From assembly GCA_024683775.1 (NCBI GenBank), contig GCA_024683775.1_4106.1: DNA of 64,000 nucleotides; one strand, written 5' to 3'. Origin of the DNA: a phage. The notes below the pieces were generated by a model that searched no databases, had not been told where the DNA came from, and saw nothing but the letters and a program-made list of their open reading frames with translations. A program made the translations under genes and the position numbers. This document shows positions 8,710 through 58,907 of this stretch, one piece after another (position 1 is the stretch's first letter; the number at the start of each line of letters is the position of its first letter).

Positions 8710-8710
8710 T

Positions 8711-12398: not shown

Positions 12399-12422
12399 AT
12401 CCACGCTATGCGTGGATTTTTC
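12399..12422 (+). terminator. intrinsic terminator
   Basis: ATCCACGC-TAT-GCGTGGAT hairpin followed by TTTTT. Confidence 0.7.
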
Positions 12423-12434
12423 ATAGGTGCATAT

Positions 12435-12950
12435 ATGACAGTTCCTTATGTTAAAATTATTAATAATATCCTTGATTCGTGGGAAGATGTTATTACTGGT
12501 AAAAAGAACCCAATGCCAGTACACGCACTAACCGGAAGACTACAATTCAGAACGTCAAACAAAACTGAAACTTTTAATAATCATGATGTTCACATTACTA
12601 TAAAATCACCTGTACGTATTGTAATTAAAAAAAATCAAGATGATGAATTGACATTATCTATTGGTAGTGATAAAATCATTTTGAGTAATTTATCCGAAGA
12701 AGAATTCTTTCAACGTAGTACTATCATCGATATGAAAGATTTCACATATGAATCATTGGTTGAACTCAATACACGTTTCAACGATATTCAGGAACGATTG
12801 CGACCAATCCTCGGTAAAGAAGAGGAAGCCTGGAATGAAAGTGTGAGAAAGATGCAAGAAATGTTGAAAGAAAATATTAACAATCTGGGTAAAGCTACAA
12901 TGGAATTTGGTAAATCTTTTAAACTGAACTTTTCAAAGGATCGTAAATGA
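12435..12950 (+). CDS. acidic-FQxS motif paralog family protein
   Basis: Motif 'SEEEFFQRSTIID'. The track start at 12408 lies inside the terminator hairpin, so I prefer the ATG at 12435. Confidence 0.6.
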   Translation: MTVPYVKIINNILDSWEDVITGKKNPMPVHALTGRLQFRTSNKTETFNNHDVHITIKSPVRIVIKKNQDDELTLSIGSDKIILSNLSEEEFFQRSTIIDMKDFTYESLVELNTRFNDIQERLRPILGKEEEAWNESVRKMQEMLKENINNLGKATMEFGKSFKLNFSKDRK

Positions 12951-13402
12951 AAATTGATAATTTGATTCATGTCTTAGGGACTTTACATAAAATATTATCT
13001 CATGTAGATGAGATAAAGAAACTGGGACTTAACATCTCAAATTCAATTGAAACTACATTTAAATATCAATCAATTACTGGTGATGGTTATTACATAATCG
13101 AATATACTTATGAAACCGATCCAGACTTCTATCCTCTTACGTTGAGAATTTATCCAACAAATCCGAGAGGAATTCACGACATATCATCAATTTCACTTGA
13201 TCCAGATGGTGAAACGAGTATTGAATACAATAATGATTCAAAACCAGAATTTTACATTGATGATATTAAAAAGTTGTTCAATGATGAATATGTTTTCCAA
13301 CAAAGTACTGTGCATGATGTTGGTAGTACTACTGGGCAATTTTGGAATACATGTTATTATCATATGATTGAAATTTGTAAATTACTAAAAGGTGTTGAAT
13401 AA
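12947..13402 (+). CDS. acidic-FQxS motif paralog family protein
   Basis: Motif 'NDEYVFQQSTVHD'. ATGA overlap upstream. Confidence 0.65.
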   Translation: MKIDNLIHVLGTLHKILSHVDEIKKLGLNISNSIETTFKYQSITGDGYYIIEYTYETDPDFYPLTLRIYPTNPRGIHDISSISLDPDGETSIEYNNDSKPEFYIDDIKKLFNDEYVFQQSTVHDVGSTTGQFWNTCYYHMIEICKLLKGVE

Positions 13403-14387: not shown

Positions 14388-14558
14388 ATGAGTCTACGTG
14401 AATCATGGGAACAATTTAAAGAAGAGATTGGTTATCGTGGTGTCAAAATCGAACCAATCAATCGCACCGAAAGCATCAAAGCTAGTACTAATGGCACTAC
14501 CTATGATCGTTATGATGAAAAGTATGGTTTACATTCTAAACCAAAGGATACTGAGTAA
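14388..14558 (+). CDS. small hypothetical protein (56 aa; not in ORF track)
   Basis: GGGGA purine run upstream of the ATG. Fills a gap. Confidence 0.4.
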   Translation: MSLRESWEQFKEEIGYRGVKIEPINRTESIKASTNGTTYDRYDEKYGLHSKPKDTE

Positions 14559-20522: not shown

Positions 20523-20871
<349 letters not shown>

Positions 20872-20884
20872 CGAGGAATCCAAA

Positions 20885-21082
20885 GTGACTAAAGCAGAAC
20901 TTGTAGCATTATTGGAATCATATCCCGATGATGCATGTATTGAAGTTGTTCATAGTGCGAGACATTTTGACATTGAAGATGTAGTACGTTATAATGACAA
21001 AGGTGTGCTCATCATGGAACTATGTATTGGTGAAATGAAAACTATACCCGAATCAGAAAAACGTAAAAATAGTAAACCGTAA
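20885..21082 (+). CDS. small protein of the 'MxKxELIxxLQ' N-terminal family
   Basis: GTG start after an AGGAA RBS. 'MTKAELVALLESYPDDACIEV' parallels the N-termini of 27558 and 27972. Confidence 0.5.
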   Translation: MTKAELVALLESYPDDACIEVVHSARHFDIEDVVRYNDKGVLIMELCIGEMKTIPESEKRKNSKP

Positions 21083-21092
21083 GGAAAATAAA

Positions 21093-21311
21093 ATGGAATC
21101 TACTCTATTAGAAGTTATTAACTCATTAAACGCTGGCGACAATGTACAAGTACTCCTTCAGGGATACCGTGTAAAAGGTTCAGTAGTTTTAGTTAATGAC
21201 ACCACTGTTGTTGTAACTGAAACTAACCCGTTTGACAGTAATGAGCTTGCTAATATCCATATTGATATTAAAAGTATTATTGGTGTTGGTGTAACTAAAC
21301 CACAAGAATAA
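21093..21311 (+). CDS. hypothetical protein
   Basis: 72 aa ORF. Confidence 0.5.
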   Translation: MESTLLEVINSLNAGDNVQVLLQGYRVKGSVVLVNDTTVVVTETNPFDSNELANIHIDIKSIIGVGVTKPQE

Positions 21312-21332
21312 CAATTGTTATTGGGGATTACT

Positions 21333-21605
21333 ATGCATTTTGAAAAATTCAATACAAATCGTAACACACGCATTGACGTTCTTTATGAAACACAAGACTC
21401 AATAAGCATTCGTACACGTAGTGGTGATGTATATCATGACTGTACTATTGGTTGGGAACAGGGAAGAACACGTAGTGCAGAATTCGATAACTATCGCTTC
21501 TACCAAGGGGACACCACAATCTGGCCTGAACACGTAGAAGATATTGCGATTGAAGATGAACATAAAGATGAATTTATAAAATTTAATCCCGAAACCGAAT
21601 CATAA
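21333..21605 (+). CDS. hypothetical protein
   Basis: I prefer the ATG at 21333 over the non-ATG track start at 21315. Confidence 0.5.
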   Translation: MHFEKFNTNRNTRIDVLYETQDSISIRTRSGDVYHDCTIGWEQGRTRSAEFDNYRFYQGDTTIWPEHVEDIAIEDEHKDEFIKFNPETES

Positions 21606-21622
21606 ATATTGGAACAGACTAT

Positions 21623-21738
<116 letters not shown>

Positions 21739-21742
21739 AAAT

Positions 21743-21828
<86 letters not shown>

Positions 21829-21845
21829 CAATTAAAGGTTAAACC

Positions 21846-22006
<161 letters not shown>

Positions 22007-22010
<4 letters not shown>

Positions 22011-22167
22011 CACATGAAGAATGGATGAATGACATTAATTTTAGATATTCGGGTATCGGTAAATGGCTAAAGTATCATTGGGAATTCATTTCAGAGCCAC
22101 ATCTGTATGATAAACTTATCAACGATCCAGCATATGAAATGTACTTAATTGAACTACTGGTACGAAT

Positions 22168-22171
<4 letters not shown>
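22007..22171 (+). CDS. 54-aa 'MTHEEW' family protein, tandem copy 2
   Basis: ATGA overlap upstream. Nearly identical to copy 1 over the first 19 codons. Confidence 0.5.
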
Positions 22172-22763
<592 letters not shown>

Positions 22764-22767
<4 letters not shown>

Positions 22768-22792
22768 CTAAATAGTTCAGTACTGATATAAT
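22764..22792 (+). promoter_or_regulatory. sigma70-type promoter, copy B of the repeated promoter
   Basis: TTGACT at 22764-22769, 17 bp spacer, TATAAT at 22787-22792. Confidence 0.6.
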
Positions 22793-22798
22793 GAATTC

Positions 22799-23140
22799 CA
22801 CAATCAGACGTATATGGTGTAAGTTACGTCGATGTAATCCAGAACAAGATCTCTGGTACTCTAGGAAGTGGTGAATGTTAACCTAGACGGGTTTGATAAT
22901 TGGACGATAGGCAATTATTACTTGACTAGCAGGTTTAAACTAGAGGTGACAGTCCTTTACCAAACTGGAAAACCGGATGGACTTTTATTTAAAAGGGTAA
23001 GGCGTGGAAATATGTTTACAGTAGTTGCTTTTAGTAGCCTGTACGCCCCACGTAAAGGTAGCCGAAAGGCAAGTTAAAACGGGTGGTTATAAAGCTGAAT
23101 TAACAGCGGCGTTTAAAAGCGTCACCATCCATTTTTTTTA
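22799..23140 (+). ncRNA. candidate structured non-coding RNA (~340 nt), promoter-driven and ending at a T8 run
   Basis: No convincing ORF. It has its own promoter. GNRA hairpin GCC-GAAA-GGC. Nested stem CCAC...GTGG. Terminal stem GGGTGGT...ACCATCC followed by TTTTTTTT. Confidence 0.45.
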
Positions 23141-23155
23141 ATTAAAGTTGGTGAT

Positions 23156-23533
<378 letters not shown>

Positions 23534-23544
23534 GATTAAGTACT

Positions 23545-24109
<565 letters not shown>

Positions 24110-24123
24110 ATCAGTACTTTATT

Positions 24124-24258
<135 letters not shown>

Positions 24259-24262
24259 AATC

Positions 24263-24352
24263 GGTCCCGTTGCCTAGCGTCCGAAGGCAGCCGACTCATA
24301 ATCGGTCACAGTTAATGACACACCACTGGTTAGAATCCAGTCGGGACCACCA
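24263..24352 (+). tRNA. tRNA with CAT anticodon (Met/Ile2 type) carrying an ~18 nt variable region and a TTA T-loop
   Basis: Acceptor GGTCCCG/CGGGACC plus A plus CCA. D-arm GCCT...AGGC. Anticodon arm GCCGA-CTCATAA-TCGGT. T-arm ACTGG-TTAGAAT-CCAGT. Confidence 0.6.
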
Positions 24353-24356
24353 ATTA

Positions 24357-24429
24357 GACTCTGTAGTTCAGTTGGTAGAACGCTTCACTCATAATGAAGA
24401 AGTCGCTGGTTCAATCCCAGTACTGACCA
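24357..24429 (+). tRNA. tRNA-like (CAT anticodon) with a non-complementary acceptor stem; possible pseudogene
   Basis: Canonical D-arm GTTC-AGTTGGTA-GAAC, anticodon arm CTTCA-CTCATAA-TGAAG and T-arm GCTGG-TTCAATC-CCAGT. The 5' GACTCTG cannot pair with the 3' ACTGACC. Confidence 0.35.
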
Positions 24430-24438
24430 CAAAAAAAA

Positions 24439-26136
<1,698 letters not shown>

Positions 26137-26183
26137 AATATTCTCCTGAATTTTCTAAAAGTTATAATAATATTTAGTTACAA

Positions 26184-26190
26184 TATTTAT
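26184..26190 (-). promoter_or_regulatory. possible T4-type late promoter core (ATAAATA on the minus strand)
   Basis: The minus strand reads TCATAAATATTG about 48 nt upstream of the GTG start. Confidence 0.25.
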
Positions 26191-26206
26191 GATATAGATT
26201 AAAAAG

Positions 26207-26236
26207 TTGAAATGTGTTCAAAAAATGTGGTATAAT
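26207..26236 (+). promoter_or_regulatory. sigma70-type promoter with an extended -10
   Basis: TTGAAA at 26207-26212 and TGgTATAAT at 26228-26236. Confidence 0.5.
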
Positions 26237-26262
26237 ACCTCTGTTGTTCACGGAAAGATTAA

Positions 26263-26484
<222 letters not shown>

Positions 26485-26493
26485 TCAAAATTC

Positions 26494-26575
<82 letters not shown>

Positions 26576-26584
26576 TAAAACAAA

Positions 26585-26668
26585 TGGTAGTTAGCATATC
26601 GGCCTTATGCAACGGACTGTTAATCCGTGTCAGAAATGACAAGACTGGTTCGACTCCAGTACTACCAG
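26585..26668 (+). tRNA. tRNA-Asn (GTT) carrying an extra variable-arm hairpin
   Basis: Acceptor TGGTAGT/ACTACCA. D-arm GCAT...ATGC. Anticodon arm ACGGA-CTGTTAA-TCCGT. 15-nt variable region with a GTCA-GAAA-TGAC hairpin. T-arm ACTGG-TTCGACT-CCAGT. Confidence 0.7.
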
Positions 26669-28774: not shown

Positions 28775-28853
<79 letters not shown>

Positions 28854-28870
28854 CAAAATAAAGGTACACT

Positions 28871-29296
28871 ATGACATACAACATTGTTAAAATGGTGAAC
28901 TACGTATTAAAAAACAACGCATGGTCACTACATGATGTACAATTAAAAGATATTGGTGAAGTTAGAGTTTTTTGCTATGATGACGATTTGAACGAAACCA
29001 CTGATTTGAGTAAATGTTTTAATATTTTTCTTGGTTATGAAATCAATGATCATTTTTATTCATTTGATGTGTATTTTGAACGAGTTAAAATCAGAATTTA
29101 TTCAGTAGATAATGATTTTTATGATTATGATAACGAATCAATTGAATTGAATTTTAACGATATTGATACTGAAGAAAAATTCTTCCAGTACTGTCTCGTA
29201 AACGATCTAAATGGATTGACATTTGAGGACATTAGTGCTATCCTTAAAGTTAAAAGATTGATTCCAGAAGAGGTTCCAAATCCGTTTAATGACTAG
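28871..29296 (+). CDS. acidic-FQxS motif paralog family protein
   Basis: Motif 'DTEEKFFQYCLVND'. Confidence 0.65.
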   Translation: MTYNIVKMVNYVLKNNAWSLHDVQLKDIGEVRVFCYDDDLNETTDLSKCFNIFLGYEINDHFYSFDVYFERVKIRIYSVDNDFYDYDNESIELNFNDIDTEEKFFQYCLVNDLNGLTFEDISAILKVKRLIPEEVPNPFND

Positions 29297-29648
29297 TTTA
29301 ATAACTCGTATAATGCAAGATGTTCGTAAGAATCTTTATACTGGTAATTTTGATGATCCTAACATAAAAATATTATGTTATGATGTATTCACACTGGTAC
29401 ACCCATCTGAATCTAATAATATATACATAGCATATACTTCTCCTGATATTTTGTATCAATTTGATTTATATAGTACAATGGCTAAGATAACATTAGATGT
29501 TTCTAAGGAGCCATTTTTTATAGCAGTACATGATTTTGAGTACACAGAAGAGTCATTATTCCAGTACTCAATGATAAATGACATTGGTGACTTGACATTA
29601 GAAGAGATAAATGTTATAGTTGGTATGTGTCGTTTGATTAATCCATAA
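29289..29648 (+). CDS. acidic-FQxS motif paralog family protein
   Basis: Motif 'YTEESLFQYSMIND'. Confidence 0.65.
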   Translation: MTSLITRIMQDVRKNLYTGNFDDPNIKILCYDVFTLVHPSESNNIYIAYTSPDILYQFDLYSTMAKITLDVSKEPFFIAVHDFEYTEESLFQYSMINDIGDLTLEEINVIVGMCRLINP

Positions 29649-29661
29649 CTCGGAGCTTAAT

Positions 29662-29853
29662 ATGTTTTTGAATTTGTTATGCTTATTTGGTCGTACATTG
29701 GTTCTTGCTATTATTCATACACCTGGTATTCGTAATTATGTTTCTTATGAATTTAAGAAAAATTACCACAACAACACTGAAGTTCGTGTAACTAAGATGT
29801 GCAAAGACTTCAATGGAGATGTTCAACCATTCAAGAAGTACGAGGATGAATAA
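29662..29853 (+). CDS. small membrane-anchored protein
   Basis: Hydrophobic N-terminus 'FLNLLCLFGRTLVLAIIH'. Confidence 0.5.
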   Translation: MFLNLLCLFGRTLVLAIIHTPGIRNYVSYEFKKNYHNNTEVRVTKMCKDFNGDVQPFKKYEDE

Positions 29854-30137
29854 TGGAATTTATTGTTGCACCTGATGAACTAAAAACATTCACGTTCCGA
29901 GACAATAACAATTATCCTTATATAAATCATTCATTGAATTCATTGCATGTTATTTCAATCATTGCATCTGAATACAGAGACAATCCATGTATTGATTTTA
30001 AAACCACTGATGGTGAATATACATGGGTAGTTCCGAACGATAAATACAGTTATCAGGGTGCAGTGGAGATCCGCGACTCGATTCTAAAGCAAATCGAAGA
30101 TGGACATACTCATCCTAAACTAAACATTCAGTACTGA
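29853..30137 (+). CDS. hypothetical protein
   Basis: 94 aa ORF. TAATG overlap upstream. Confidence 0.5.
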   Translation: MEFIVAPDELKTFTFRDNNNYPYINHSLNSLHVISIIASEYRDNPCIDFKTTDGEYTWVVPNDKYSYQGAVEIRDSILKQIEDGHTHPKLNIQY

Positions 30138-30329
30138 AATCGTTTAACCGGATAGCTTCTAGTCGGTACTGAATTCCTCCTTTTGTCTAGAAGCTATCAC
30201 TCTTTTAAAGTATAATGATATCACCCTCATGGTTCATTATATTCGTTACCCTCTAACAGTATCTTTTTTATTCCTCTTTGATACTGTATTTTAGAAGTTG
30301 ACATTTTTACTTCTACTGTGTTATACTTA

Positions 30330-30361
30330 AGGCTGATTCATAATGAATCGGCCTTTTTTTC
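30330..30361 (+). terminator. hairpin plus T-run overlapping a promoter (TTGACA 30297-30302)
   Basis: AGGCTGATTCA-TAA-TGAATCGGCCT hairpin followed by TTTTTTT. Confidence 0.6.
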
Positions 30362-30378
30362 TTGTGGGGATTAATGTA

Positions 30379-30795
30379 ATGAATAAAGAAGTTATTAGTT
30401 TAATGGATGAGTATATCAACCAAACATATCGTTTTATATTTTTTAATGCATTTGAGTCCAGAACAACGTATTATTCTGGTGAATATGAGATAATAACTGG
30501 ATCATTTCTTAACGGATACATGGAGTTTTTAGAACAAAGCGATAATGTGTTCATTTCCATATCTGAAAAACATGGTAATGATTATGTTATTGATATGTGG
30601 CCTAATAAAGTAGAGATTGATACCACGCACAAAATCGTAATTGATGTGGATGAATCGTTGTATGATTTAACTGAAGATATGTACATGCAACTAAATTTCG
30701 TATACGATCTAACTAACATAAGTTATTCTAATCTAAGTAAATTATTTTATATTTGTGGTGTACTACATAAAAACGTACAACAAAATAAAGGATAA
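30379..30795 (+). CDS. acidic-FQxS motif paralog family protein (divergent, YMQ variant)
   Basis: Motif 'LTEDMYMQLNFVYD'. The track start at 30343 lies in the terminator hairpin, so I prefer the ATG at 30379. Confidence 0.55.
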   Translation: MNKEVISLMDEYINQTYRFIFFNAFESRTTYYSGEYEIITGSFLNGYMEFLEQSDNVFISISEKHGNDYVIDMWPNKVEIDTTHKIVIDVDESLYDLTEDMYMQLNFVYDLTNISYSNLSKLFYICGVLHKNVQQNKG

Positions 30796-30803
30796 ACATT
30801 TAA

Positions 30804-31208
30804 ATGTTGAAAATTCCACCACATACACTATCTATGCTAATTGAAAATGGTGTAATATTTTCTGAAGGGTGTAGTTCATTCTATACATGTGACGTAGACC
30901 CGTATACATTTGAATACCGTTCATTTAAAAATACATTGAGTGTTCCATGTGAAGCTTCTGACAACATTGTACTTGTCGTTTCGTTCTATGGTGTGCCAAA
31001 ATTCTTCATTGATATATATTATGATTCTTTTAAGATACAAACATACGATCATTTTCTTGGTGAAGTGCTCTTGCAAATGCAGATTGAACATGTTACTATA
31101 GATGAAGATATGTTCTTTCAGCTATCTACATTATACGATATGTGTGGATTGTCAGTTGACAACATAAATGGTATATTTGAAATTGCCAGAAACCTACGAG
31201 GAAGATGA
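30804..31208 (+). CDS. acidic-FQxS motif paralog family protein
   Basis: Motif 'IDEDMFFQLSTLYD'. Confidence 0.65.
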   Translation: MLKIPPHTLSMLIENGVIFSEGCSSFYTCDVDPYTFEYRSFKNTLSVPCEASDNIVLVVSFYGVPKFFIDIYYDSFKIQTYDHFLGEVLLQMQIEHVTIDEDMFFQLSTLYDMCGLSVDNINGIFEIARNLRGR

Positions 31209-31209
31209 T

Positions 31210-31617
31210 ATGAATAAAATTTTAAGTGATAATGAGGTTGATATTGTCATTGATGTGCTTGAAAACAGTAATACATTTGAGAAGAAACACAGTACTGTAT
31301 ACTTCGGTAAAGATTGCTGGTTGAGCTATATATCTGATAATTCGTTTGTAATTCGTGTTGAAACGGGTGATATTGGATTTACGGTACATGCGGCACATAC
31401 CAAAACTGATAAACAAATCACTGTTATTGCTGACACGCCAAGTATCTGGGATAGAATTGATGATTGTGAACACTACACGTCAACATTCTATGATACAGAA
31501 GAAGAACATTTCATGGATAGTACGGTCAAAGAATTAACTATTCCATTTAAACTTATGAAAGCAGCAAGAGATTTTATTTTAAAATACAAAAAAATAGGAG
31601 TTGATGATGCAATTTAA
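31210..31617 (+). CDS. acidic-FQxS motif paralog family protein (FM variant)
   Basis: Motif 'DTEEEHFMDSTVKE'. The ATG at 31210 follows the upstream stop directly. Confidence 0.6.
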   Translation: MNKILSDNEVDIVIDVLENSNTFEKKHSTVYFGKDCWLSYISDNSFVIRVETGDIGFTVHAAHTKTDKQITVIADTPSIWDRIDDCEHYTSTFYDTEEEHFMDSTVKELTIPFKLMKAARDFILKYKKIGVDDAI

Positions 31618-32053
31618 TGGTAAGGTTTCTAAAGTAGGTTTAGTTTTTGAAAATTGTGAGTTCATTGAGATTGATGTAAAGAATGTTTTATGGATGCATA
31701 TTGCTGACGAGAAAACTCTTTGTAGTCGTTTTTCCAACGGTCTAACTATTAGTACTGGTATTGGTGAGTTTGGTATCGCATTACGTAGTGACACACCATC
31801 TGATTTCATGGATAACTCAACACTGCTAGAACGTTTAAAAATGCGTGATGTTACACACGTTTATCTTTATGATACTAATGGTGTTGAACAGCGTTATGTA
31901 GTTGAATGGGCTAATTATAACCTTAGTGATCAATATTCAGTAAATCAGCGTGTTCAACTCACCCCTGGTGGTAATATTGTGTTTGTTAGTTCAACTGGTA
32001 AATTAATCAGTGTAGATGATGAAAGTATCGATCTATTCACTTCATATAACTAA
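31604..32053 (+). CDS. hypothetical protein
   Basis: ATG at 31604 after a GGAG RBS. Confidence 0.55.
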   Translation: MMQFNGKVSKVGLVFENCEFIEIDVKNVLWMHIADEKTLCSRFSNGLTISTGIGEFGIALRSDTPSDFMDNSTLLERLKMRDVTHVYLYDTNGVEQRYVVEWANYNLSDQYSVNQRVQLTPGGNIVFVSSTGKLISVDDESIDLFTSYN

Positions 32054-32064
32054 TACGAGCTTCT

Positions 32065-32484
32065 ATGAAAACAATCAAAACACATTTCAAAGACACGTGG
32101 ACAGAAGTAAGTACTGGTAATATTCAAGATATTTTATACAGTACTGAAACTATTCATGTCTATGACGAAGAGACAGCAGCGGAGCAGTTAAAGGTATTGC
32201 ATCGTAGTGTAGGTGAACACACCGAGTACGGTGTTAAACATACTCGTGAATTGGTAAGTACTGATCATATTGACACCTGTACTGTAAATCTATCAAAAGA
32301 AGAAATGTTTGATTTTATTCTAAACAATACTTTAGCAATTCAACCAGATGGATCACTATACAGTAAAACAGATGGTACACAAGTTCATAAAAAGTACAAT
32401 GTGACCATCAATGATACGGTGATGTCTGGATATGATTTAGTTGATGCAATCAACGAGTACGTTTCTATGCAGAGGTTGAAATGA
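32065..32484 (+). CDS. hypothetical protein
   Basis: 139 aa ORF. Confidence 0.55.
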   Translation: MKTIKTHFKDTWTEVSTGNIQDILYSTETIHVYDEETAAEQLKVLHRSVGEHTEYGVKHTRELVSTDHIDTCTVNLSKEEMFDFILNNTLAIQPDGSLYSKTDGTQVHKKYNVTINDTVMSGYDLVDAINEYVSMQRLK

Positions 32485-32846
32485 TTAATCTGATATATTT
32501 TACAATTATTTGTTGCATTACTATTGTACTTTGTCGTCTAATTCATGTATACTCATATCATAAAGCGTTGAGAATCGAACAAGAGATTTACAACGAAAAC
32601 CGTGAGCCAGAGCCAGAGAAGCTACCCCGCTCACCATATGCATTGAAGCGTGAGATGCATTCGGTGAGTAAGAAGTGGGGTTATGCAATAACCAAGCATG
32701 GTTATATCGACACTGCTGCAAATGGCTATTTTCAAATTCACTATGATCTTTCAGTTGCGATTGGAATTTTATGGGAAATGGAGGATATAGGTGGTTATGA
32801 GCGTACTAAATTTCCAAACTTACAAAATGATCCAGGAACTTCATGA
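32481..32846 (+). CDS. membrane-anchored protein (N-terminal TM)
   Basis: 'LIYFTIICCITIVLCRLIHVY'. ATGA overlap upstream. Confidence 0.55.
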   Translation: MINLIYFTIICCITIVLCRLIHVYSYHKALRIEQEIYNENREPEPEKLPRSPYALKREMHSVSKKWGYAITKHGYIDTAANGYFQIHYDLSVAIGILWEMEDIGGYERTKFPNLQNDPGTS

Positions 32847-33000
32847 AGAACATGATATAATTATAGATGTAGAAAAGAAGGAAGTTGTTATGAAGAAGCA
32901 AGCATATCGCATCTTAGACAACTTCTATCTTAAGGCATTTATAATGAAGTTCTGTGCAGACGAGCACTTAACAGGACGTGTTATACGCAAGGAGTCGTAG
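32827..33000 (+). CDS. small hypothetical protein
   Basis: The ATG at 32827 lies inside track ORF 32791..33000. It overlaps the upstream gene by 20 nt. Confidence 0.35.
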   Translation: MIQELHEEHDIIIDVEKKEVVMKKQAYRILDNFYLKAFIMKFCADEHLTGRVIRKES

Positions 33001-33342
33001 ATGGACATGAGTTCAACAATTCAGTACTTGAGCGAGAATTTTGTCAAAATCATTTCACGTGGTGGTATGATTGTGCATCCTGAAACTGAAGATATGTATA
33101 TCATTCGTTTTGATGCAAATTCTTATGATCAAGTACTTGTTGTTTCGAAATTAGTAGGTTATAATGAAGTCGTTCAGTTCTGCTGTACTGAGTTCGGTAT
33201 CTATATTAAAGATGCAGAAACCAATGAGATTTCACATTATTTTTATCACACACTGATGGGTACTAAAGATTTTGGATTGAAATTCAATGATTTAGTACAA
33301 TGTCACTATATGTTTAAAACATACCCAGCATCTGGGAAATAA
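33001..33342 (+). CDS. hypothetical protein
   Basis: 113 aa ORF. Confidence 0.55.
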   Translation: MDMSSTIQYLSENFVKIISRGGMIVHPETEDMYIIRFDANSYDQVLVVSKLVGYNEVVQFCCTEFGIYIKDAETNEISHYFYHTLMGTKDFGLKFNDLVQCHYMFKTYPASGK

Positions 33343-33353
33343 GGAGTAACAAT

Positions 33354-34169
33354 ATGAGCAACATTTTCTTCAAAACCATTTCCTTCAAAAAAGAATCTTA
33401 CTCTTACGCTTATGTAGATGGTAAAGTACTCAATATCGTTCTAGATGGTGTTGATGTACCTGTTCAATTTACCAGTCATCAAGAAGCGATTGAGGGTGCT
33501 CAAGAGCTTAACAGCTTACTAAATGGTATTGAGAAGAAACCTGAAGTTAAATCTGACCTTGATTTATTGGTTGACAAAATTAAAAGTGGTGAACTATTAT
33601 CAATTCTAGACCAGTGTAATGAAAAATTACGTGGTGTTGTTGGTGATGTACGTACTACAGTTCAAGATCGTCTACTTGAGCAAGCATTCAAAGAAGTTAC
33701 TAAGAAAACTGAAGAACGTGTTGAAGGTATGATTAAAAACATTGATGACGTTCTCACTCATATGTTCACCAAGCCATACGAATCAAGTACTGATTCTGAA
33801 GAGAAACAAGAAGAACCAGTAGAACGCACCAAGCCATCTATTGTTACTAAAGTTAAACATAGTTTTGGTTCACTGGATGATGTATTTGGATTTACAAATG
33901 TACGTGTTAGTACTGATGAAAAGCCAGAAGTTGATGAAATGCTAATTGGTGACATGACAACTGGACAACTCAAAAAAGAGATTGATACCTTTGTTAATGA
34001 ACTAATTAGTTCTGAACGTGCTGAAAATATGTTTAGCAGTATTTCAGCAAACTTCGGCAAAGAAGCAACTGAGCAAGCAGTACAGGCATTCAAAGATTTG
34101 ATTTACACTGTTGCAATTGCTAATCCAGAACAAACACTGGAAGAAGTTCTACGTAAAAACTTCAAATAA
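33354..34169 (+). CDS. acidic hypothetical protein
   Basis: 271 aa, rich in Glu, Asp and Lys. AAGGAG RBS upstream. Confidence 0.6.
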   Translation: MSNIFFKTISFKKESYSYAYVDGKVLNIVLDGVDVPVQFTSHQEAIEGAQELNSLLNGIEKKPEVKSDLDLLVDKIKSGELLSILDQCNEKLRGVVGDVRTTVQDRLLEQAFKEVTKKTEERVEGMIKNIDDVLTHMFTKPYESSTDSEEKQEEPVERTKPSIVTKVKHSFGSLDDVFGFTNVRVSTDEKPEVDEMLIGDMTTGQLKKEIDTFVNELISSERAENMFSSISANFGKEATEQAVQAFKDLIYTVAIANPEQTLEEVLRKNFK

Positions 34170-34184
34170 GATATAGATAAAAGA

Positions 34185-34213
34185 AAAGCCACTACAATGT
34201 AGTGGCTTTTTTG
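34185..34213. terminator. bidirectional intrinsic terminator between convergent genes
   Basis: AAAA-GCCACTA-CAATG-TAGTGGC-TTTTTT. Confidence 0.75.
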
Positions 34214-35371
34214 TTATGCGTTATAACCAACAATGACTACAGTACAGCCAAATGGTTCAACAACTTTTAATACAACATTATCATCTGCATCGAGTTCAAC
34301 TTCACTTAGAACAACATGATTGTCTTCAGCATAGACTTGAACTTGTGGGAGGATTTTACCATGTTCACTGGCAGGAATGGACAGTGTGTACATAGAATCA
34401 CCATCATCTACCCAATCACTATCGGTATACGTGTTGTGATATGGAGTGGTGTGTAAGGTTTTACCAATAATACTCAATGAGATTGGAGCATCATCAGTTT
34501 GGTACACAGTAATATTACCGCTAGGATCTACAATGAGGTCTACTCCAATTTGGAATAAATCACCACTGTATGCTTGTAGAGCAAGATACTCACCACGCTC
34601 ATGCACAGTAGCTGGTACAGTTGCCATGTACATACCATCGGACGTGTACTCAAACTGAGATAGAAGTACTGAAGTAACGAAGTCAATATCTTCGCCGCTT
34701 TCTAGTATATCAAATTCAATAGTTTTGGTATTATATATGTCAGAAGTGAGTATGATGGTTCCTTTACCGGATTGAGTAATTGGATCAACTGGAATACTAA
34801 AAACATCATCAATTATTTCAGTTGTGAAGTACTCGGTTCCGTCAGGAAGTATAACGGTAATACGCATTCCAGTTGTATCAATGGCTGAACCTGCGTTGAA
34901 TAGGCGACCACCTACCAAATCATCACCTACGAACGTTGGGAACATAAGGATGTTGTCTATATCTCTATCTATAATCCCGCATTCAGGGGTGTACATATTA
35001 TATAGTGTTTGTGAACTACCTAGAATTGTTTTGTGCAAAAGAAACTTATAAACAAACCCAGTAGGATCTGATTCAAGTTTAGCATCTGAGTATCCTCTTA
35101 CGAAAAAAGAGTTCTTTCTTATTTCACTTAGGATTTGGTCATTAGTTTTGTTGTAGTTTAATTGATATCCTTGTATATCCTTTGTTGTAATTTGTACTTT
35201 ACGATAAATTACATTACTTACAGGATCAAGTAAATCATATAATCTATGGCTTCTCTGACGATAGATTCGAACATTTTTGAGTTTAGTCCCATCGTTGAGA
35301 ATTGCACCATCGACTACATATCCACATTCACCGAACTTATATTGTCCAGCAGCAGCAATCGATCTTGACAT
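34214..35371 (-). CDS. hypothetical late or structural protein (fibre or decoration-like; unassigned)
   Basis: 385 aa on the minus strand. GGAGGG RBS and ATG start. The composition looks beta-rich. Possible late-promoter core upstream. Confidence 0.6.
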   Translation of the reverse strand: MSRSIAAAGQYKFGECGYVVDGAILNDGTKLKNVRIYRQRSHRLYDLLDPVSNVIYRKVQITTKDIQGYQLNYNKTNDQILSEIRKNSFFVRGYSDAKLESDPTGFVYKFLLHKTILGSSQTLYNMYTPECGIIDRDIDNILMFPTFVGDDLVGGRLFNAGSAIDTTGMRITVILPDGTEYFTTEIIDDVFSIPVDPITQSGKGTIILTSDIYNTKTIEFDILESGEDIDFVTSVLLSQFEYTSDGMYMATVPATVHERGEYLALQAYSGDLFQIGVDLIVDPSGNITVYQTDDAPISLSIIGKTLHTTPYHNTYTDSDWVDDGDSMYTLSIPASEHGKILPQVQVYAEDNHVVLSEVELDADDNVVLKVVEPFGCTVVIVGYNA

Positions 35372-35402
35372 TCATCCCTCCATTGGTATAATTATTATAA
35401 CG

Positions 35403-35409
35403 TATTTAT
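35403..35409 (-). promoter_or_regulatory. possible T4-type late promoter core (ATAAATA on the minus strand)
   Basis: The minus strand reads GAATAAATACG about 32 nt upstream of the ATG at 35371. Confidence 0.3.
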
Positions 35410-35431
35410 TCTAGATAGGTAAAAAAGCACC

Positions 35432-35460
35432 TTGACTGAGTTGTGTTTTTGACGTATACT
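35432..35460 (+). promoter_or_regulatory. sigma70-type promoter
   Basis: TTGACT at 35432-35437, 17 bp spacer, TATACT at 35455-35460. Confidence 0.5.
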
Positions 35461-35487
35461 TAAATGGAATATCAATAAGGGGATTTT

Positions 35488-36072
35488 ATGAGTGTTGTAG
35501 AAAAACGTTTAGTACTGAAAAATGGTAAAATGACTGTTAAGCTATACAAAGATGAAGCTGATTCTTTTATGGCTAAAGCAATTGAGAAATCCGAACGATA
35601 TAAAATTCTTGCACCTGCAAGTAAATCGCCGTATGGGTTTAATCACGCTCACAGTCATTTTGTTGGTATGGTATGTGAACATGCTTCATTTGTACTTTTT
35701 AATGAAATTGAAAACTATTCAGGTATTGCACTTAACATCGATCCAGCGTTCCAAAGTGATGGACGTGATGGGGAATGTGATATCAAAGTAAACAACTTAA
35801 GAATTGAAGTGAAAGGTATCAAGTACAAATCGTGGACCGACTTTGGACCATGTGTTAGTACTCGACAGTTAAAAAATATACAGAAAAAAGCTGACGTTAT
35901 TCTGTGGGTATTGTATAATGAGAAAAAGCAAGAATTCACATTTGAGGGATTCAACTATGTAAAAGACATTAGTTCGATTCCAGTTGTGCTAACAGGTGTA
36001 CCAGGGCGACCAATGATTGAAAATCACCCAGTACTGAGTATTATTAAACCACTTCAGGAGTTACCATTATGA
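35488..36072 (+). CDS. PD-(D/E)xK nuclease-fold-like protein (tentative)
   Basis: 'DGRDGECDIKVNNLRIEVKGIK' fits a D...E-x-K catalytic pattern. Confidence 0.4.
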   Translation: MSVVEKRLVLKNGKMTVKLYKDEADSFMAKAIEKSERYKILAPASKSPYGFNHAHSHFVGMVCEHASFVLFNEIENYSGIALNIDPAFQSDGRDGECDIKVNNLRIEVKGIKYKSWTDFGPCVSTRQLKNIQKKADVILWVLYNEKKQEFTFEGFNYVKDISSIPVVLTGVPGRPMIENHPVLSIIKPLQELPL

Positions 36073-36296
36073 TTACTGCCACTGTATATCAAGATATTAA
36101 TGAAGAATTTAATTCTAAAATTGCATTTTTATCCTTTCCCGTATTGCCAGCTATTGGTGCTACGTTGAATCTTACAATCTGTGGCTTTGAAAAATACTAT
36201 GAAGTACTAGATATTGAGTACTGTGCCGATGTTTATTCATGCAACAGTGAGATTGCTATTCCTGTGCAAATCGACATTATTGTAAAAGAGGTTTGA
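36069..36296 (+). CDS. hypothetical protein
   Basis: 75 aa ORF. ATGA overlap upstream. Confidence 0.5.
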   Translation: MITATVYQDINEEFNSKIAFLSFPVLPAIGATLNLTICGFEKYYEVLDIEYCADVYSCNSEIAIPVQIDIIVKEV

Positions 36297-36298
36297 TT

Positions 36299-36757
36299 AT
36301 GTTTAAACACTTTCTAGTAATCACTGCTGTTGTATTCAGTACTTCCTGCTTCGTTGCACCAGTACATGCGGAAGACCAGCGTCAAACAATCAAGACGATT
36401 GGAACAGGGAAAGCCCAACCAAAACGTACTGCTGAAGAATACATGCCTGAGATGCGTGAACGTTACCGCCAGCAATACCGTGAAAAACATGCTAATGATA
36501 AGCCTATCAAAAAGCATAAATGGAATGTAGTCAAATCGCCATCGTTTTGTGCTGGGTATGCTAAGGTTAAGGATGAACAGCACAACAAGCAGTACTATAA
36601 AGATATGTACACATTCTATGATTCGAGGATCTCGGATGATGACATGATGGCTGCTAAGGTTGATAAAGAAGAATTTCTTCAGGGTTATGACATGACCGAT
36701 GATGACAAGATCATGGAATGTGTTGAAGTATATGAAAAATACAGAGGTTTTGAATGA
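36299..36757 (+). CDS. secreted protein (signal peptide)
   Basis: 'MFKHFLVITAVVFSTSCFVAPVHA|EDQ' looks like a signal peptide. Confidence 0.55.
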   Translation: MFKHFLVITAVVFSTSCFVAPVHAEDQRQTIKTIGTGKAQPKRTAEEYMPEMRERYRQQYREKHANDKPIKKHKWNVVKSPSFCAGYAKVKDEQHNKQYYKDMYTFYDSRISDDDMMAAKVDKEEFLQGYDMTDDDKIMECVEVYEKYRGFE

Positions 36758-37197
36758 CACTTTTGCTGATTCTAGGTTTATTAGTGTCATATTTCATTTT
36801 TCTTAACATCTTCTCTGATGCATCACATTTTGCATATGCTTCAGCTATTGCAAAACACGAAGGGATAAAGAAGTATATTCCTGCATTGTTATTCTCATAT
36901 ATGTACCATCCAAGGTACTTTACACTAGGTGTGTTTGACAAGTATGTATACGACGAAAAAGCACTCAATGAAATTGAATACTTTGTAAGAACTCATGCTA
37001 ATAACAATCCAAAATCATTAATTAACTTTACTGATAATCGTAAACGTGTTAGTATTAGAAGTGACTTGTATCCTACCAGTCACTTTCATCTAGGCGATTG
37101 TAGTGTGTACAGAGTTAGATACGAAAACTTACTGTTACCACCATCACATATAAGATACATAGAAAAATACTTGTTGAAATGTGTTGACTCCAAATAG
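36754..37197 (+). CDS. membrane-anchored protein
   Basis: N-terminal 'LLLILGLLVSYFIFLNIF'. ATGA overlap upstream. Confidence 0.55.
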   Translation: MTLLLILGLLVSYFIFLNIFSDASHFAYASAIAKHEGIKKYIPALLFSYMYHPRYFTLGVFDKYVYDEKALNEIEYFVRTHANNNPKSLINFTDNRKRVSIRSDLYPTSHFHLGDCSVYRVRYENLLLPPSHIRYIEKYLLKCVDSK

Positions 37198-37250
37198 TAA
37201 ATGGCAGTATAATAGCTTCGTACCGCAATAACTGACAAGAGGATTTAACG

Positions 37251-37709
37251 ATGGACGTATTAGCTACTCAATTCAAACGCAACGCAGAAGAACGTGAAGG
37301 TTACCTAAGTATCAGTGAAGTGGTTGAAGATGGATTCAAGCAGTACATTTTCAACAGTGCAATTAAACTGAAGCCAACAAAAGATTCACCGGATCGCAGC
37401 TTCACAAAGTGGATTGCATTCTGGGAAGAGTCACCAATTGCAATCGAAATGACTGTCATTACTACAGTACTGGAAACTGGTTACATCAAAGCAATTGTAG
37501 TTGATAAGAAAGTTCGCACTCTTGATGAAATCGGGACATACCCAGCACGTAACTCTAAAGTATTTGGGTGTTTAGTTGATGGTAAGTTTATGATTGAAAA
37601 AGATGCTAAGAACTATGTAATTGATAAACTACAAACCAGTGCTACTAAACAGGAAGTCGTAGACCAGAACGCAGTGGATGCTATTAAAAAGGCATGGGGA
37701 CTGAAATAA
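37251..37709 (+). CDS. hypothetical protein
   Basis: 152 aa ORF with a GAGGA RBS. Confidence 0.55.
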   Translation: MDVLATQFKRNAEEREGYLSISEVVEDGFKQYIFNSAIKLKPTKDSPDRSFTKWIAFWEESPIAIEMTVITTVLETGYIKAIVVDKKVRTLDEIGTYPARNSKVFGCLVDGKFMIEKDAKNYVIDKLQTSATKQEVVDQNAVDAIKKAWGLK

Positions 37710-38131
37710 TGTTCACACTTAGCAATGCAAAGTATCTATTTCTTATTGCTATTATTGGTTGGGTTATGGCTCCAGTGCTTAATGCACTGGGGTTTCCAGA
37801 CGGACATAAACTTGTAAATGTTTCAGGTGTAATCCAGGGCATTTCATGGTATTCATTGATTATATTTTCTATATGTATTCATACATTTGCACGTGATTAC
37901 CGCCGTCTGCTTTTTGTTAAAGTATTCGGTACTAAGAGATATAGTTTTGTGTTTACATTTATTTTAATACCATGTATTATCTATGCTTTTGTATTTGATT
38001 ACTATACTTATCTGTGGGTGTGTGGTTCTATGTTTGTTATGTTGGAATATACAAGAACTGTTCAAAACTCATATGCTGATGAGTATTATGATCTTGAAGT
38101 TAAACGAAAATTAACGGAGCTAAACAAATGA
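37709..38131 (+). CDS. multi-pass membrane protein
   Basis: About four hydrophobic helices. TAATG overlap upstream. Confidence 0.55.
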   Translation: MFTLSNAKYLFLIAIIGWVMAPVLNALGFPDGHKLVNVSGVIQGISWYSLIIFSICIHTFARDYRRLLFVKVFGTKRYSFVFTFILIPCIIYAFVFDYYTYLWVCGSMFVMLEYTRTVQNSYADEYYDLEVKRKLTELNK

Positions 38132-38553
38132 GGGGATACAATAAGATTTGTATTTTTGTATTTTTAGTTTGTGCAATCAATACATTTGGATATTACTGTA
38201 CTGAAAACAACATTTCATATGGTTTAAATCCTTTGTGGTTTACAATTGCCAATGTAGCACAAATTGGTATTGCTGTTATGTCTGCACTTATGTTCTGTCC
38301 AATTGTCACTATGGATACTGAACATGAAAGGCTTGGATTTATCCGTGATACTGGAGACGAACCTTACAGTAGATTGATTGTGTTGTATCCATTTATTGTT
38401 ATTTTAGGTACTAACATCCAACTTGGGTCTTTATCTAATAGTGTTACTTCAGCAGCCATTACAGTCTTTGCATTCACATTTTTTATGGTACACAAATCAG
38501 TACTCAAATGGCACATCACCAAAATGGCAGAGAAAGGTACAGAAAACAGTTGA
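38128..38553 (+). CDS. multi-pass membrane protein
   Basis: About four hydrophobic helices. The stop TGA lies inside the next TTGACG. Confidence 0.55.
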   Translation: MRGYNKICIFVFLVCAINTFGYYCTENNISYGLNPLWFTIANVAQIGIAVMSALMFCPIVTMDTEHERLGFIRDTGDEPYSRLIVLYPFIVILGTNIQLGSLSNSVTSAAITVFAFTFFMVHKSVLKWHITKMAEKGTENS

Positions 38554-40145: not shown

Positions 40146-41111
40146 GTGAAAAAGCTTGATTTAAATGCAATTTCTGAAGAAGTACTGGATGAGTGTTTTG
40201 CTAGTGAAGAAGTCAACGTATTAGAGGCTCTTGATTCCGTCGAAGAAGAAGAACATGACGGTCACAAGTTTGAGAAACCAAAAACAGGTATCAGCTTAAC
40301 TCGCCCTAAAGGGATAACGAATGAAATGCTCATCCAAGCAGTGCGTGATGGTATTGACGTTGAAAAGAACATTGACCTTTTGGTTCGCTACAACTATCCA
40401 ATGGTAGTAAGTGTTGCACGTAAGTGTACATGTTTTATCCCATTTGAAGATAAGATTTCTTATGGTGTTGAAGGTTTAATGCGAGCAATTCATACGTTCG
40501 ACACTACCAAAAATGTTAAGTTCATTACATATGCAACAACAACTGTGTACATGACAATCTATAACGAAAGTGCAGATGCTAATTATCTAGTGCATTTCCC
40601 ACGTTATATGAGTGTTAATAACATTTATGTGAAACGTTGTGTAGAAGAGTATCAAAGGAAACATGGTAAATACCCAACTCCTGAGATGGTGTCAAAAGAG
40701 ACTGGTATTGAGATTCAACACGTTAAGAATTGTCTAACTTACAGTAACACTTATGTAGCATTGAATATGAAAATGAGTAATGATTCAGAAAGTACATTAT
40801 CTGACATTGTTACTTCAGTTGAACCTGATTACAACTTAGGCGTAGAAACTGTCAGTACCCCACTGGTACAAAGTATTGCAGAAATGATGAGTAACCTATC
40901 TGCCAAAGACCGTGAATTGATTGAACGTGTACATGGTATTGGTTCTTATTCTGAACCCGAAACGCTACGAGAAATCATTGAGAGTGGTTTTGAAGATGAG
41001 AAGGGTAAGGTCATGACTGCTCGTTCTTCATTGCACCGTAAGTACTCTGAAGCAATGGAACGACTGCGTAAGATGGTTAAGACAAAAGGTTATGAGTTCG
41101 AAGATTTTTAA
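40146..41111 (+). CDS. sigma-70 family RNA polymerase sigma factor
   Basis: GTG start after a GGAGAAG RBS. Region 2-like 'LVRYNYPMVVSVARK...GVEGLMRAIHTFD...KFITYATTTVYMTIYNE'. Region 4-like 'LSAKDRELIERVHGI...ETLREI...ARSSLHRKYSEAMERLRK'. Confidence 0.75.
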   Translation: MKKLDLNAISEEVLDECFASEEVNVLEALDSVEEEEHDGHKFEKPKTGISLTRPKGITNEMLIQAVRDGIDVEKNIDLLVRYNYPMVVSVARKCTCFIPFEDKISYGVEGLMRAIHTFDTTKNVKFITYATTTVYMTIYNESADANYLVHFPRYMSVNNIYVKRCVEEYQRKHGKYPTPEMVSKETGIEIQHVKNCLTYSNTYVALNMKMSNDSESTLSDIVTSVEPDYNLGVETVSTPLVQSIAEMMSNLSAKDRELIERVHGIGSYSEPETLREIIESGFEDEKGKVMTARSSLHRKYSEAMERLRKMVKTKGYEFEDF

Positions 41112-43420: not shown

Positions 43421-43504
43421 ATGACTTTAGAGATTGTCTTTGGTATTGTTAGCTTAGTCGTCTGTGTGGGTTGGTTTGGGTATCTGATGATTTTTGGTGA
43501 TTAA
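43421..43504 (+). CDS. 27-aa hydrophobic peptide (not in ORF track)
   Basis: MTLEIVFGIVSLVVCVGWFGYLMIFGD, after an AAGGA RBS. Confidence 0.3.
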   Translation: MTLEIVFGIVSLVVCVGWFGYLMIFGD

Positions 43505-43507
43505 TAC

Positions 43508-43535
43508 TTGACATAAGATATCAGTACTGTATAAT
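43508..43535 (+). promoter_or_regulatory. sigma70-type promoter followed by a long leader hairpin
   Basis: TTGACA at 43508-43513 and TATAAT at 43530-43535. The leader has GCAGTGA...TCACTGC and then a T-run. Confidence 0.55.
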
Positions 43536-43628
43536 GTTTATATCAAAGGGAATGCAGTGAAAGGAAAGACAGCATAATCGTACTCGTCACTGCGTTTCCA
43601 CCCTTTTAAATTAAATGAGGAATTAACT

Positions 43629-47486: not shown

Positions 47487-47497
47487 TACTGTATAAT
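47470..47497 (+). promoter_or_regulatory. sigma70-type promoter
   Basis: TTGACA at 47470-47475, 16 bp spacer, TATAAT at 47492-47497. AGTACTG occupies the spacer. Confidence 0.55.
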
Positions 47498-47544
47498 GGT
47501 TCTTGTAGTCTGAAACTTAACACTTAAACTTGAGGATATAAAAC

Positions 47545-58831: not shown

Positions 58832-58832
58832 G

Positions 58833-58860: not shown

Positions 58861-58907
58861 GTTTATCAAGGGGATGAACTTCTCATCCCCACAATCGAGG
58901 AATTGTC

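Follow-up and report, generated by a model that had tools for sequence, protein, structure and literature searches.

Two tandem genes at positions 28871 to 29648 of a 64,000-nucleotide stretch of phage DNA (NCBI GenBank assembly GCA_024683775.1, contig GCA_024683775.1_4106.1; hereafter, the window, positions 1 to 64000) raise the question of why one DNA hexamer, AGTACT, recurs under a conserved protein motif. An earlier note, made from the letters of the window, had observed that AGTACT is written over the C-terminal FQxST or FQY box of a protein family in two different reading registers. It had suggested that part of what is conserved there could be the nucleotide motif, for example a recombination or protein-binding site used to shuffle variable N-terminal modules. 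By megablast, the window is the early-gene region of an Asteriusvirus-type, RaK2/121Q-like jumbo phage. It is 98-99% identical to Escherichia phages WPEC5, fEgEco12, CMSTMSU, and EC.P1 and ~85% identical to JP4, G17, and 121Q. We propose, at close to even confidence, that AGTACT and the 8-base-pair (bp) palindrome CAGTACTG that contains it are a genome-wide recognition word of RaK2/121Q-like jumbo phages, read by a phage-encoded, sequence-specific DNA protein. By analogy, the word is best read as a viral counterpart of the highly iterated palindromes (HIPs) of cyanobacteria.

AGTACT in the window and at the FQxST/FQY box

AGTACT is the commonest hexamer of the window, with 171 copies versus 18.2 ± 4.1 in dinucleotide-preserving shuffles, and the full palindrome CAGTACTG occurs 41 times where 0.6 copies are expected. 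Inside coding sequences, 152 copies are found versus 34.6 ± 5.3 under synonymous-codon shuffling, and the excess is 4-5-fold in each reading frame (69/30/53 observed versus 18/5.7/10.9 expected). The two kinds of shuffle reject chance, composition, and codon usage as the cause. Intergenic DNA carries the hexamer at the same density as genes, and sites are uniform along genes. A regular spacing was rejected, as spacing is near-exponential outside the terminal repeat. Sigma70 promoters do not account for the copies either, since only 5-6 of the 171 lie in promoter-like contexts.

The excess is visible in the encoded proteins. Ser-Thr dipeptides are spelled AGT-ACT in 69 of 135 cases (51%, versus 13% expected from codon usage), cAGTACt is carried by 13 of 38 Gln-Tyr dipeptides, and aGTACTn is carried by 53 of 155 Val-Leu dipeptides. 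These dipeptides are themselves over-represented in the window's coding sequences (Ser-Thr 1.75-fold, 135 versus 77 expected; Val-Leu 1.3-fold; Gln-Tyr 1.29-fold), and the reversed dipeptides, including Thr-Ser, stand at ~1.0. The DNA word has altered the protein composition of these coding sequences.

To place the FQxST/FQY box within this population, we collected the family members of the window with a profile of the C-terminal box EE.FFQxST[VIL]xD. The profile recovered 18 members, which are spread over several function-unassigned PHROGs and have no Pfam match. The two genes that raised the question are both on the plus strand. The first (28871 to 29296) encodes 141 amino acids with the box EEKFFQYCLVNDL (phrog_17453, 4e-52; no Pfam match; box profile, 5e-19). 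The second (29289 to 29648; 119 amino acids; box EESLFQYSMINDI; phrog_17453, 3e-41) is its tandem paralogue and falls in the same blastp cluster.

Every codon string that the earlier note had quoted was found in the sequence, at the gene named for it. AGT-ACT lies over the Ser-Thr of the box at 13304 to 13309 (caa-agt-act-gtg, open reading frame [ORF] 12947-13402), 10279 to 10284 (ttg-agt-act-gtt, ORF 9937-10392), 22684 to 22689 (acg-agt-act-gta, ORF 22402-22767), and 9008 to 9013 (gat-agt-act-gtt, ORF 8696-9115). A fifth case, beyond those listed earlier, is at 12717 to 12722 (cgt-agt-act-atc, ORF 12408-12950). The Gln-Tyr register is used at 29187 to 29192 (ttc-cag-tac-tgt, ORF 28871-29296) and at 29563 to 29568 (ttc-cag-tac-tca, ORF 29289-29648). 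Beyond these two tandem members, it is also used at 4123 to 4128 (ttt-cag-tac-tcg) in ORF 3624-4205, a looser relative of the box family. Both registers therefore exist as described, but they do not put the hexamer at one place: the Gln-Tyr copy sits 5 nucleotides upstream of the Ser-Thr copy, and the two would overlap by a single base.

The suggestion of a family-specific recombination or binding site at the box, serving to shuffle the N-terminal modules, deserves hardly any credence. It draws on the presence of AGTACT in the box of seven of the 18 members, five in the Ser-Thr register and two in the Gln-Tyr register, but the hexamer is missing from the other 11. Box occupancy equals that of Ser-Thr anywhere in the window: AGT-ACT spells 5 of 7 box Ser-Thr dipeptides and 64 of 128 elsewhere (Fisher's exact test, P = 0.44). 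Gln-Tyr dipeptides carry cAGTACt in 3 of 3 boxes versus 10 of 35 elsewhere in the window (P = 0.034), a contrast that is not independent because two of the three are adjacent tandem paralogues. The hexamer is also not a property of the family motif: unrelated genes carry it at equal density, in each of the three frames, and so does intergenic DNA. Genes for structure and replication show the same excess, as do five other genera.

Nor do homology breakpoints mark the hexamer as a shuffling site. Across 44 breakpoints between the window and JP4 or TH47, the median distance to AGTACT is 162 bp versus 125 bp for random positions, and five breakpoints lie within 10 bp versus 2.9 expected (P = 0.16). 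The five that coincide with AGTACT, which speak for a recombination site, are intergenic AGTACTG-TATAAT promoter cassettes. The box copies would be ordinary members of a genome-wide AGTACT population, present there for no other reason than that the hexamer can encode Ser-Thr and Gln-Tyr-(Cys/Ser). For annotation, this is a warning that conserved "DNA motifs" under protein motifs are to be expected by default in these genomes.

What did stand is the claim that the DNA hexamer is constrained beyond the peptide, given an excess that survives synonymous-codon shuffling and sites that are retained above background. In comparison with JP4 (84.5% identity), 91 of 126 AGTACT sites (72%) are intact, versus 46% for all hexamers or hexamers of the same composition (P = 3e-9) and 54% for adjacent hexamers in the same phase. 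The flanking C/G is retained in 89% of cases versus a background of 77-82%, and site retention climbs with the match to the consensus (66, 73, and 80%). At greater distance, orthologues of fEgEco12 and GAP32 (~70% nucleotide identity) hold 52 and 50 sites, of which 13 are at the same position, with a background of ~18%. Equal counts with so few shared positions indicate that new sites are gained continually.

These comparisons argue that AGTACT is kept by selection on the DNA itself, over drift or mutation bias. A simple short-patch repair drive of the Vsr type was rejected: no single-mismatch neighbour of AGTACT is depleted (0.8-1.4 of the Markov expectation), with the deamination-product neighbour AGTATT/AATACT at 0.99-1.16 of expectation, and the search for a Vsr homologue in RaK2-like phages was negative.

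The palindrome and its spread among phages

The excess extends far beyond the window. In fEgEco12, AGTACT occurs 728 times over 275 kilobases (kb), a 7.9-fold enrichment, and reaches 6-fold in structural and replication genes. Enrichment of 6-8-fold was found in RaK2 (Alcyoneusvirus), GAP32 and CBB (Mimasvirus), Yersinia phage fHe-Yen9-04 (Eneladusvirus), Salmonella phage Munch, TH47, and the Mimasvirus XbC2, which was isolated on Xanthomonas. The resulting density in the clade is one copy per 150-400 bp. A scan of viral contigs for CAGTACTGTATAAT was cleanly bimodal: 20 metagenomic loci, almost all on contigs of ~350 kb, have AGTACT enriched 7-23-fold, and the remaining chance matches are ordinary.

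Outside the clade the picture is reversed. AGTACT stands at 0.28-fold in Pseudomonas phage Deifobo, a distant relative, and is under-represented in PA5oct-like phages. Counts in depleted phages are 0 copies versus 11.9 expected in a phi92-like coliphage, 5 versus 14.8 in ICP1, and 4 versus 14.1. In 60 kb of Escherichia coli K-12, AGTACT is at 0.73-fold (~1 per 5.5 kb) and CAGTACTG is absent; GTAC is at 0.56-fold and GCGC at 1.9-fold, the mirror image of the phage.

A ScaI-type target shaped by avoidance does not fit a hexamer that is 8-fold over-represented. Avoidance of restriction sites in phages (PMC6286503) is likewise selection on short phage palindromes, and these genomes do lack GCGC and most GC-rich hexamer palindromes. 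The sign for AGTACT is opposite, however: it has accumulated here and has not been purged. In the open-access literature that we searched, we found neither the enrichment of AGTACT or CAGTACTG nor the lack of GCGC reported for these phages, and the genome-wide palindrome excess appears to be undescribed in the searchable literature.

The flanks of the hexamer define the full word. At position -1/+1, C/G is enriched 2.5-2.8-fold and G/C is depleted, symmetrically on both sides. Because this is the only informative flank, the full word is the 8-bp palindrome CAGTACTG, which is enriched 49-fold (143 copies versus 2.9 expected in 273 kb). A longer, 12-bp palindrome, TTCAGTACTGAA, was rejected, as there is real information at position -1 only. 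One-off variants of CAGTACTG are enriched 7-13-fold when the outer C/G is changed, 2-6.5-fold when the A/T is changed, and ~0.5-5-fold when GTAC is hit. In its flanks and enrichment profile, the word is a two-fold symmetric site with graded mismatch tolerance, as in a dimeric operator.

The same features are those of an HIP: a short palindrome over-represented genome-wide (49-fold for CAGTACTG, 8-fold for AGTACT), in any frame and between genes, with one-off variants biased to the first and last base (outer changes 7-13-fold, inner changes 0.5-6.5-fold).

A host protein that reads a similar site could be the target of the word. The phage might titrate or recruit such a protein, for example the nucleoid-occlusion factor SlmA, and so block host division or sequester a regulator. 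We judge this very unlikely. Its appeal is that the SlmA site GTGAGTACTCAC has the identical central six bases (PMC3020112), forms a short palindrome, and is read by a dimeric helix-turn-helix protein (PMC3020112), and that the trait is absent from the Pseudomonas relative.

The SlmA site, however, is a 12-bp palindrome that requires G1, T2, A4, G5, and a purine at position 3 (PMC3020112). Position 3 is C in 45-51% of the phage sites, with G most disfavoured (4-11%), and G1 is not enriched. The G...C flank is the rarest of the 16 combinations (6 of 885), and exact sites number zero. SlmA sites were rejected accordingly, A4 and G5 being present and the flanks wrong. The numbers differ as well: there are ~50 SlmA sites per bacterial chromosome versus ~900 AGTACT copies in the 333 kb of phage DNA examined. 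The trait is also kept in XbC2, a clade member isolated on Xanthomonas, which indicates that it follows the phage lineage and not the enterobacterial host.

Promoter positions, the AGTACA block, and a putative reader

The direct terminal repeat is 21 kb long (PMC13070987). It is the densest AGTACT zone, with 64-68 sites per 10 kb, and is packed with tiny genes behind sigma70-type promoters. AGTACT takes two fixed places in the promoter-like sites of this repeat in both fEgEco12 and CBB, phages of different genera and different hosts. At the first place, found in 15 of 29 sites in fEgEco12 and 8 of 17 in CBB, the last T of AGTACT is the first T of the -35 hexamer. The second place is in the spacer (13 of 29 and 13 of 17 sites, respectively), where AGTACT ends exactly 1 nucleotide before the -10 hexamer in 12 of 13 cases in fEgEco12 and in 13 of 13 in CBB. 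The combined pattern is AGTAC/TTGNNN plus AGTACT-N1-TATAAT, a position fixed between genera as is typical of an operator. The two promoter copies lie 20-22 bp apart, and the histogram of pair distances peaks at 11-12 and 20-22 bp.

The window itself has six promoters of the type TTGAC(A/T)-N9-10-(C)AGTACTG-TATAAT, all on the plus strand. TTGACT-N10-AGTACTG-TATAAT spans 22334 to 22370, a sigma70-type promoter with AGTACT at 22358, 1 nucleotide upstream of the -10 hexamer. TTGACT-N10-AGTACTGA-TATAAT spans 22755 to 22792, with AGTACT at 22779, and is also a homology breakpoint with JP4. AGTACTGA-TATAAT at 24140 to 24153 lies upstream of the tRNA cluster. TTGACA-N9-CAGTACTG-TATAAT occurs at 43500 to 43536 and at 58825 to 58861 (AGTACT at 43523 and 58848), and TTGACA-N10-AGTACTG-TATAAT occurs at 47462 to 47498 (AGTACT at 47485). 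The window also encodes a phage sigma factor (40146 to 41111) in which only sigma70 regions 2 and 3 are detectable and region 4 is not. It would be expected to depend on contacts at the -10 and extended -10, which is the zone of the promoter AGTACT copy.

Two-fold symmetry, the graded profile, operator-like positions, and the lineage-bound distribution together speak for a symmetric phage protein that recognises double-stranded DNA. The earlier note's idea of a protein-recognition site survives in this form, as the best explanation of the hexamer; its tie to the family motif does not, the constraint being genome- and clade-wide. We hypothesize that a symmetric, dimeric phage-encoded protein reads the word on double-stranded DNA. 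The density of the word (1 per 150-400 bp versus ~1 per 5.5 kb in E. coli) would let this protein find phage DNA selectively. The same protein could act as an operator-binding switch at the immediate-early promoters, most simply by shutting them off.

Some phages make abundant DNA-binding proteins that coat their own genome and also repress early promoters, such as TF1 of SPO1 and p6 of phi29. SPO1 is further alike in having its early promoters within a long terminal redundancy that is packed with host-takeover genes. What TF1 depends on, however, is hydroxymethyluracil in the DNA, and p6 depends on bendability; neither relies on a short palindromic word. No homologue of TF1 or p6, and no other reader, was identified in the clade.

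A polarity for which a symmetric reader does not account appears near the left end of the genome. The region from 29016 to 37647 of fEgEco12 (8.6 kb, just beyond the terminal repeat) has almost no AGTACT and has AGTACA instead, with 46 copies on the coding strand versus 0 of the complement, in all frames and with the same C/G flanks. Position 6 in this block is A in 46 cases, C in 3, G in 2, and T in 1. A sequencing or base-calling artefact was rejected, as the independently sequenced 121Q shows the same asymmetry. Its block is likewise 46:0 with only 21 positions in common with fEgEco12, which indicates that the block is real and actively maintained.

The block is seen in the Asteriusvirus genomes fEgEco12, CMSTMSU, and 121Q and is absent from CBB, and the top-strand excess of AGTACA reaches over ~25-60 kb. 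The genes in the block are paralogues of the FQxST/FQY box family. We know of no HIP counterpart of such an oriented variant block. Directly after the terminal repeat, fEgEco12 also has a 5.8-kb array (20857 to 26616) of ~26 overlapping paralogues of ~70 amino acids with no AGTACT. We considered whether the 20.9-26.6-kb region carries the oriented motif in inverted form and rejected this, since the region shows no GTAC enrichment and its few GTAC copies encode one conserved Ala-Val-Leu peptide.

The AGTACA block is the polarity expected of a one-way machine signal. The word could mark where a DNA-transaction machine loads or recognises the DNA, whether a primase working on the lagging-strand template, topoisomerase II of the phage, or a helicase-nuclease that responds to a Chi-like signal. 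Such a machine would require the word densely on both strands, a palindrome being the most economical supply. The exponential spacing, the equal density in coding and non-coding DNA, and the absence of positional conservation also agree with it. We nevertheless regard this account as quite improbable: it predicts neither the two fixed immediate-early promoter positions nor the avoidance of T at position 6 of the AGTACA block, and known primases read trinucleotides, whereas Chi and KOPS are non-palindromic.

Chi, DNA uptake sequences, and KOPS are over-represented words under selection or drive. Like the phage word, they are short words far above chance that occur in coding DNA and turn over in position, and each has a cognate machine. 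They are, however, asymmetric and orientation-biased, while the phage word, outside the AGTACA block, is palindromic, and its density is 5-10 times higher. All three are listed among the classes of such words in the HIP literature (PMC4390886).

Possible methylation, GCGC absence, and remaining features

The closest analogue of the word is HIP1, GCGATCGC, of cyanobacteria (Elhai 2015, PMC4390886). Both are 8-bp palindromes that occur about once per few hundred to one thousand bases, within genes and in all frames, with variants at the first or last base, orphan methyltransferases in the genome, and a density held across lineages. The phage word differs in its AT-rich core AGTACT, its viral genome, and a methyltransferase link that is a candidate one. 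The favoured model for HIP1 is methylation-directed biased repair, with the excess maybe a by-product (PMC4390886).

An account of this kind for the phages would make AGTACT, or the inner GTAC, the target of an orphan methyltransferase of the clade, with no dedicated binding protein. The word would be dense either because the methyl marks matter (protection from AGTACT-specific restriction, or discrimination of strands or of self) or incidentally, through biased methyl-directed mismatch repair.

Two orphan methyltransferases are encoded in the clade. The first is a C5-cytosine DNA methyltransferase of 286 amino acids (11050 to 11910 of the window, plus strand; PF00145, 4.7e-37), whose best relatives among solved structures are M.HhaI and the catalytic domain of Dnmt3. 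It is a candidate writer on the C-containing palindrome. Its orthologues are 63-100% identical in Asterius-, Mimas-, and Alcyoneusvirus. The second is a Dam-family N6-adenine methyltransferase (PF05869), whose gene adjoins a cytidylyltransferase in every AGTACT-rich lineage sampled and is missing at that locus in Deifobo.

We consider the methylation account possible but, on the whole, unlikely. The anatomy of the word is that of HIP1 (G-CGATCG-C), which has variants at the first or last base and orphan methyltransferases for the inner 6-mer and 4-mer (PMC4390886), and the distribution of the Dam-family enzyme matches the AGTACT trait. The clade purges most palindromes, with 22-30 of the 64 hexamer palindromes absent per 40-64 kb, which implies exposure to restriction. 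Given that other phages avoid AGTACT, its ~1,000 copies here probably need protection. RaK2 DNA has been reported to be resistant to methylation-sensitive enzymes (PMC3622015), and fEgEco12 DNA was cut normally by ten enzymes, none of which reads AGTACT or GTAC (PMC13070987).

Several observations count against the methylation account. No close C5 homologue turned up in Eneladusvirus or Munch-like phages. Beyond the clade, the nearest homologues belong to phi92-like and ICP1 genomes, which are AGTACT-poor, and on this ground we rejected the C5 methyltransferase as a predictor of the trait. The lack of depleted single-mismatch neighbours and of a Vsr homologue also counts against it. Unlike CGATCG outside HIP1, AGTACT that lacks the outer C/G is still ~3-fold enriched. 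If AGTA-C-T were C5-methylated, the resulting A-mC would be a site sensitive to McrBC. The copies at fixed promoter positions, a further difference from HIP1, would require the extra assumption of methylation-sensitive promoters. Methylation and a binding protein are not exclusive explanations.

Several points weigh against the reading that we prefer, a genome-wide word for a phage-encoded binding protein. For HIP1, the closest analogue of the word, methylation-directed biased repair with the excess as a possible by-product is the favoured model (PMC4390886), and the clade has two orphan methyltransferases. A symmetric dimer does not explain the strand polarity of the 8.6-kb AGTACA block. No recognisable DNA-binding domain was found in any annotated "regulator" of fEgEco12, and the reader protein was not identified. 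The -10-proximal AGTACT copy could, in addition, partly serve promoter strength and not regulation.

Selection for one 6-8-bp word has thus reshaped the coding sequence, codon choice, and dipeptide content of a supergroup of ~350-kb phages. This offers a testable handle on how jumbo phages that have neither a nucleus nor modified bases organise, time, or protect their DNA, and a tractable viral system for studying what purpose highly iterated palindromes serve.

A second compositional anomaly accompanies the word. GCGC is absent from the window (0 versus 55 expected) and from 333 kb (0 versus ~330). It is absent from every AGTACT-rich phage sampled, including all 20 AGTACT-rich loci of the CAGTACTGTATAAT scan; the Pseudomonas relative has it at a normal frequency. 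The window likewise contains no hexamer palindrome with four G/C. A GCGC-directed nuclease, of phage or host, is the obvious suspect.

A broader conjecture, which we hold to be rather unlikely, is that jumbo phages with unmodified DNA tell self from host purely by oligonucleotide content, being saturated with CAGTACTG and free of GCGC, with the AGTACA block as a polar signal for a moving machine. Phage proteins (a regulator, a coat protein, or a methyltransferase) would act only on CAGTACTG-rich phage DNA, and a GCGC-directed nuclease would destroy host DNA (E. coli has one GCGC every ~144 bp) and leave the phage unharmed. If true, this would be a sequence-based equivalent of the base-modification strategy of T4. 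Several unrelated-looking viral contigs (22-84 kb) also have zero GCGC (16-19 expected), with AGTACT only ~2-3-fold enriched, and GCGC avoidance may be wider than the RaK2-like clade.

In TH47 (36441 to 38327), an insertion of ~1 kb interrupts the C5 methyltransferase gene at its catalytic GGFPCQ motif, and both parts of the gene are present. By the pattern of coverage, the gene is also split in UE-S1, ph0011, JNE01, and A4. The insertion looks like an intron or a homing-endonuclease element.

The remaining content of the window is, nearly throughout, small plus-strand genes without assigned function, together with seven tRNA genes. Among the latter, a tRNA-Thr(TGT) at 28781 to 28854 lies just upstream of the gene at 28871, and a tRNA-Ser on the plus strand (24164 to 24255) has the anticodon ACT, with an unusual A34, and is cognate to AGT. 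Of the Ser codons in the window, 31% are AGT, a share that is largely due to the AGTACT motif. In XbC2 (14407 to 14480), an annotated tRNA with the anticodon CTA, labelled tRNA-Pyl, would be a potential amber suppressor.

The longest AGTACT-free stretch of the window (24667 to 26359) lies in a variable segment that JP4 lacks and covers most of a minus-strand ORF (24439 to 26136). This ORF encodes 565 amino acids rich in Ser, Thr, and Asn and has no family match. It holds one AGTACT versus 4.5 expected, which suggests a recent arrival.

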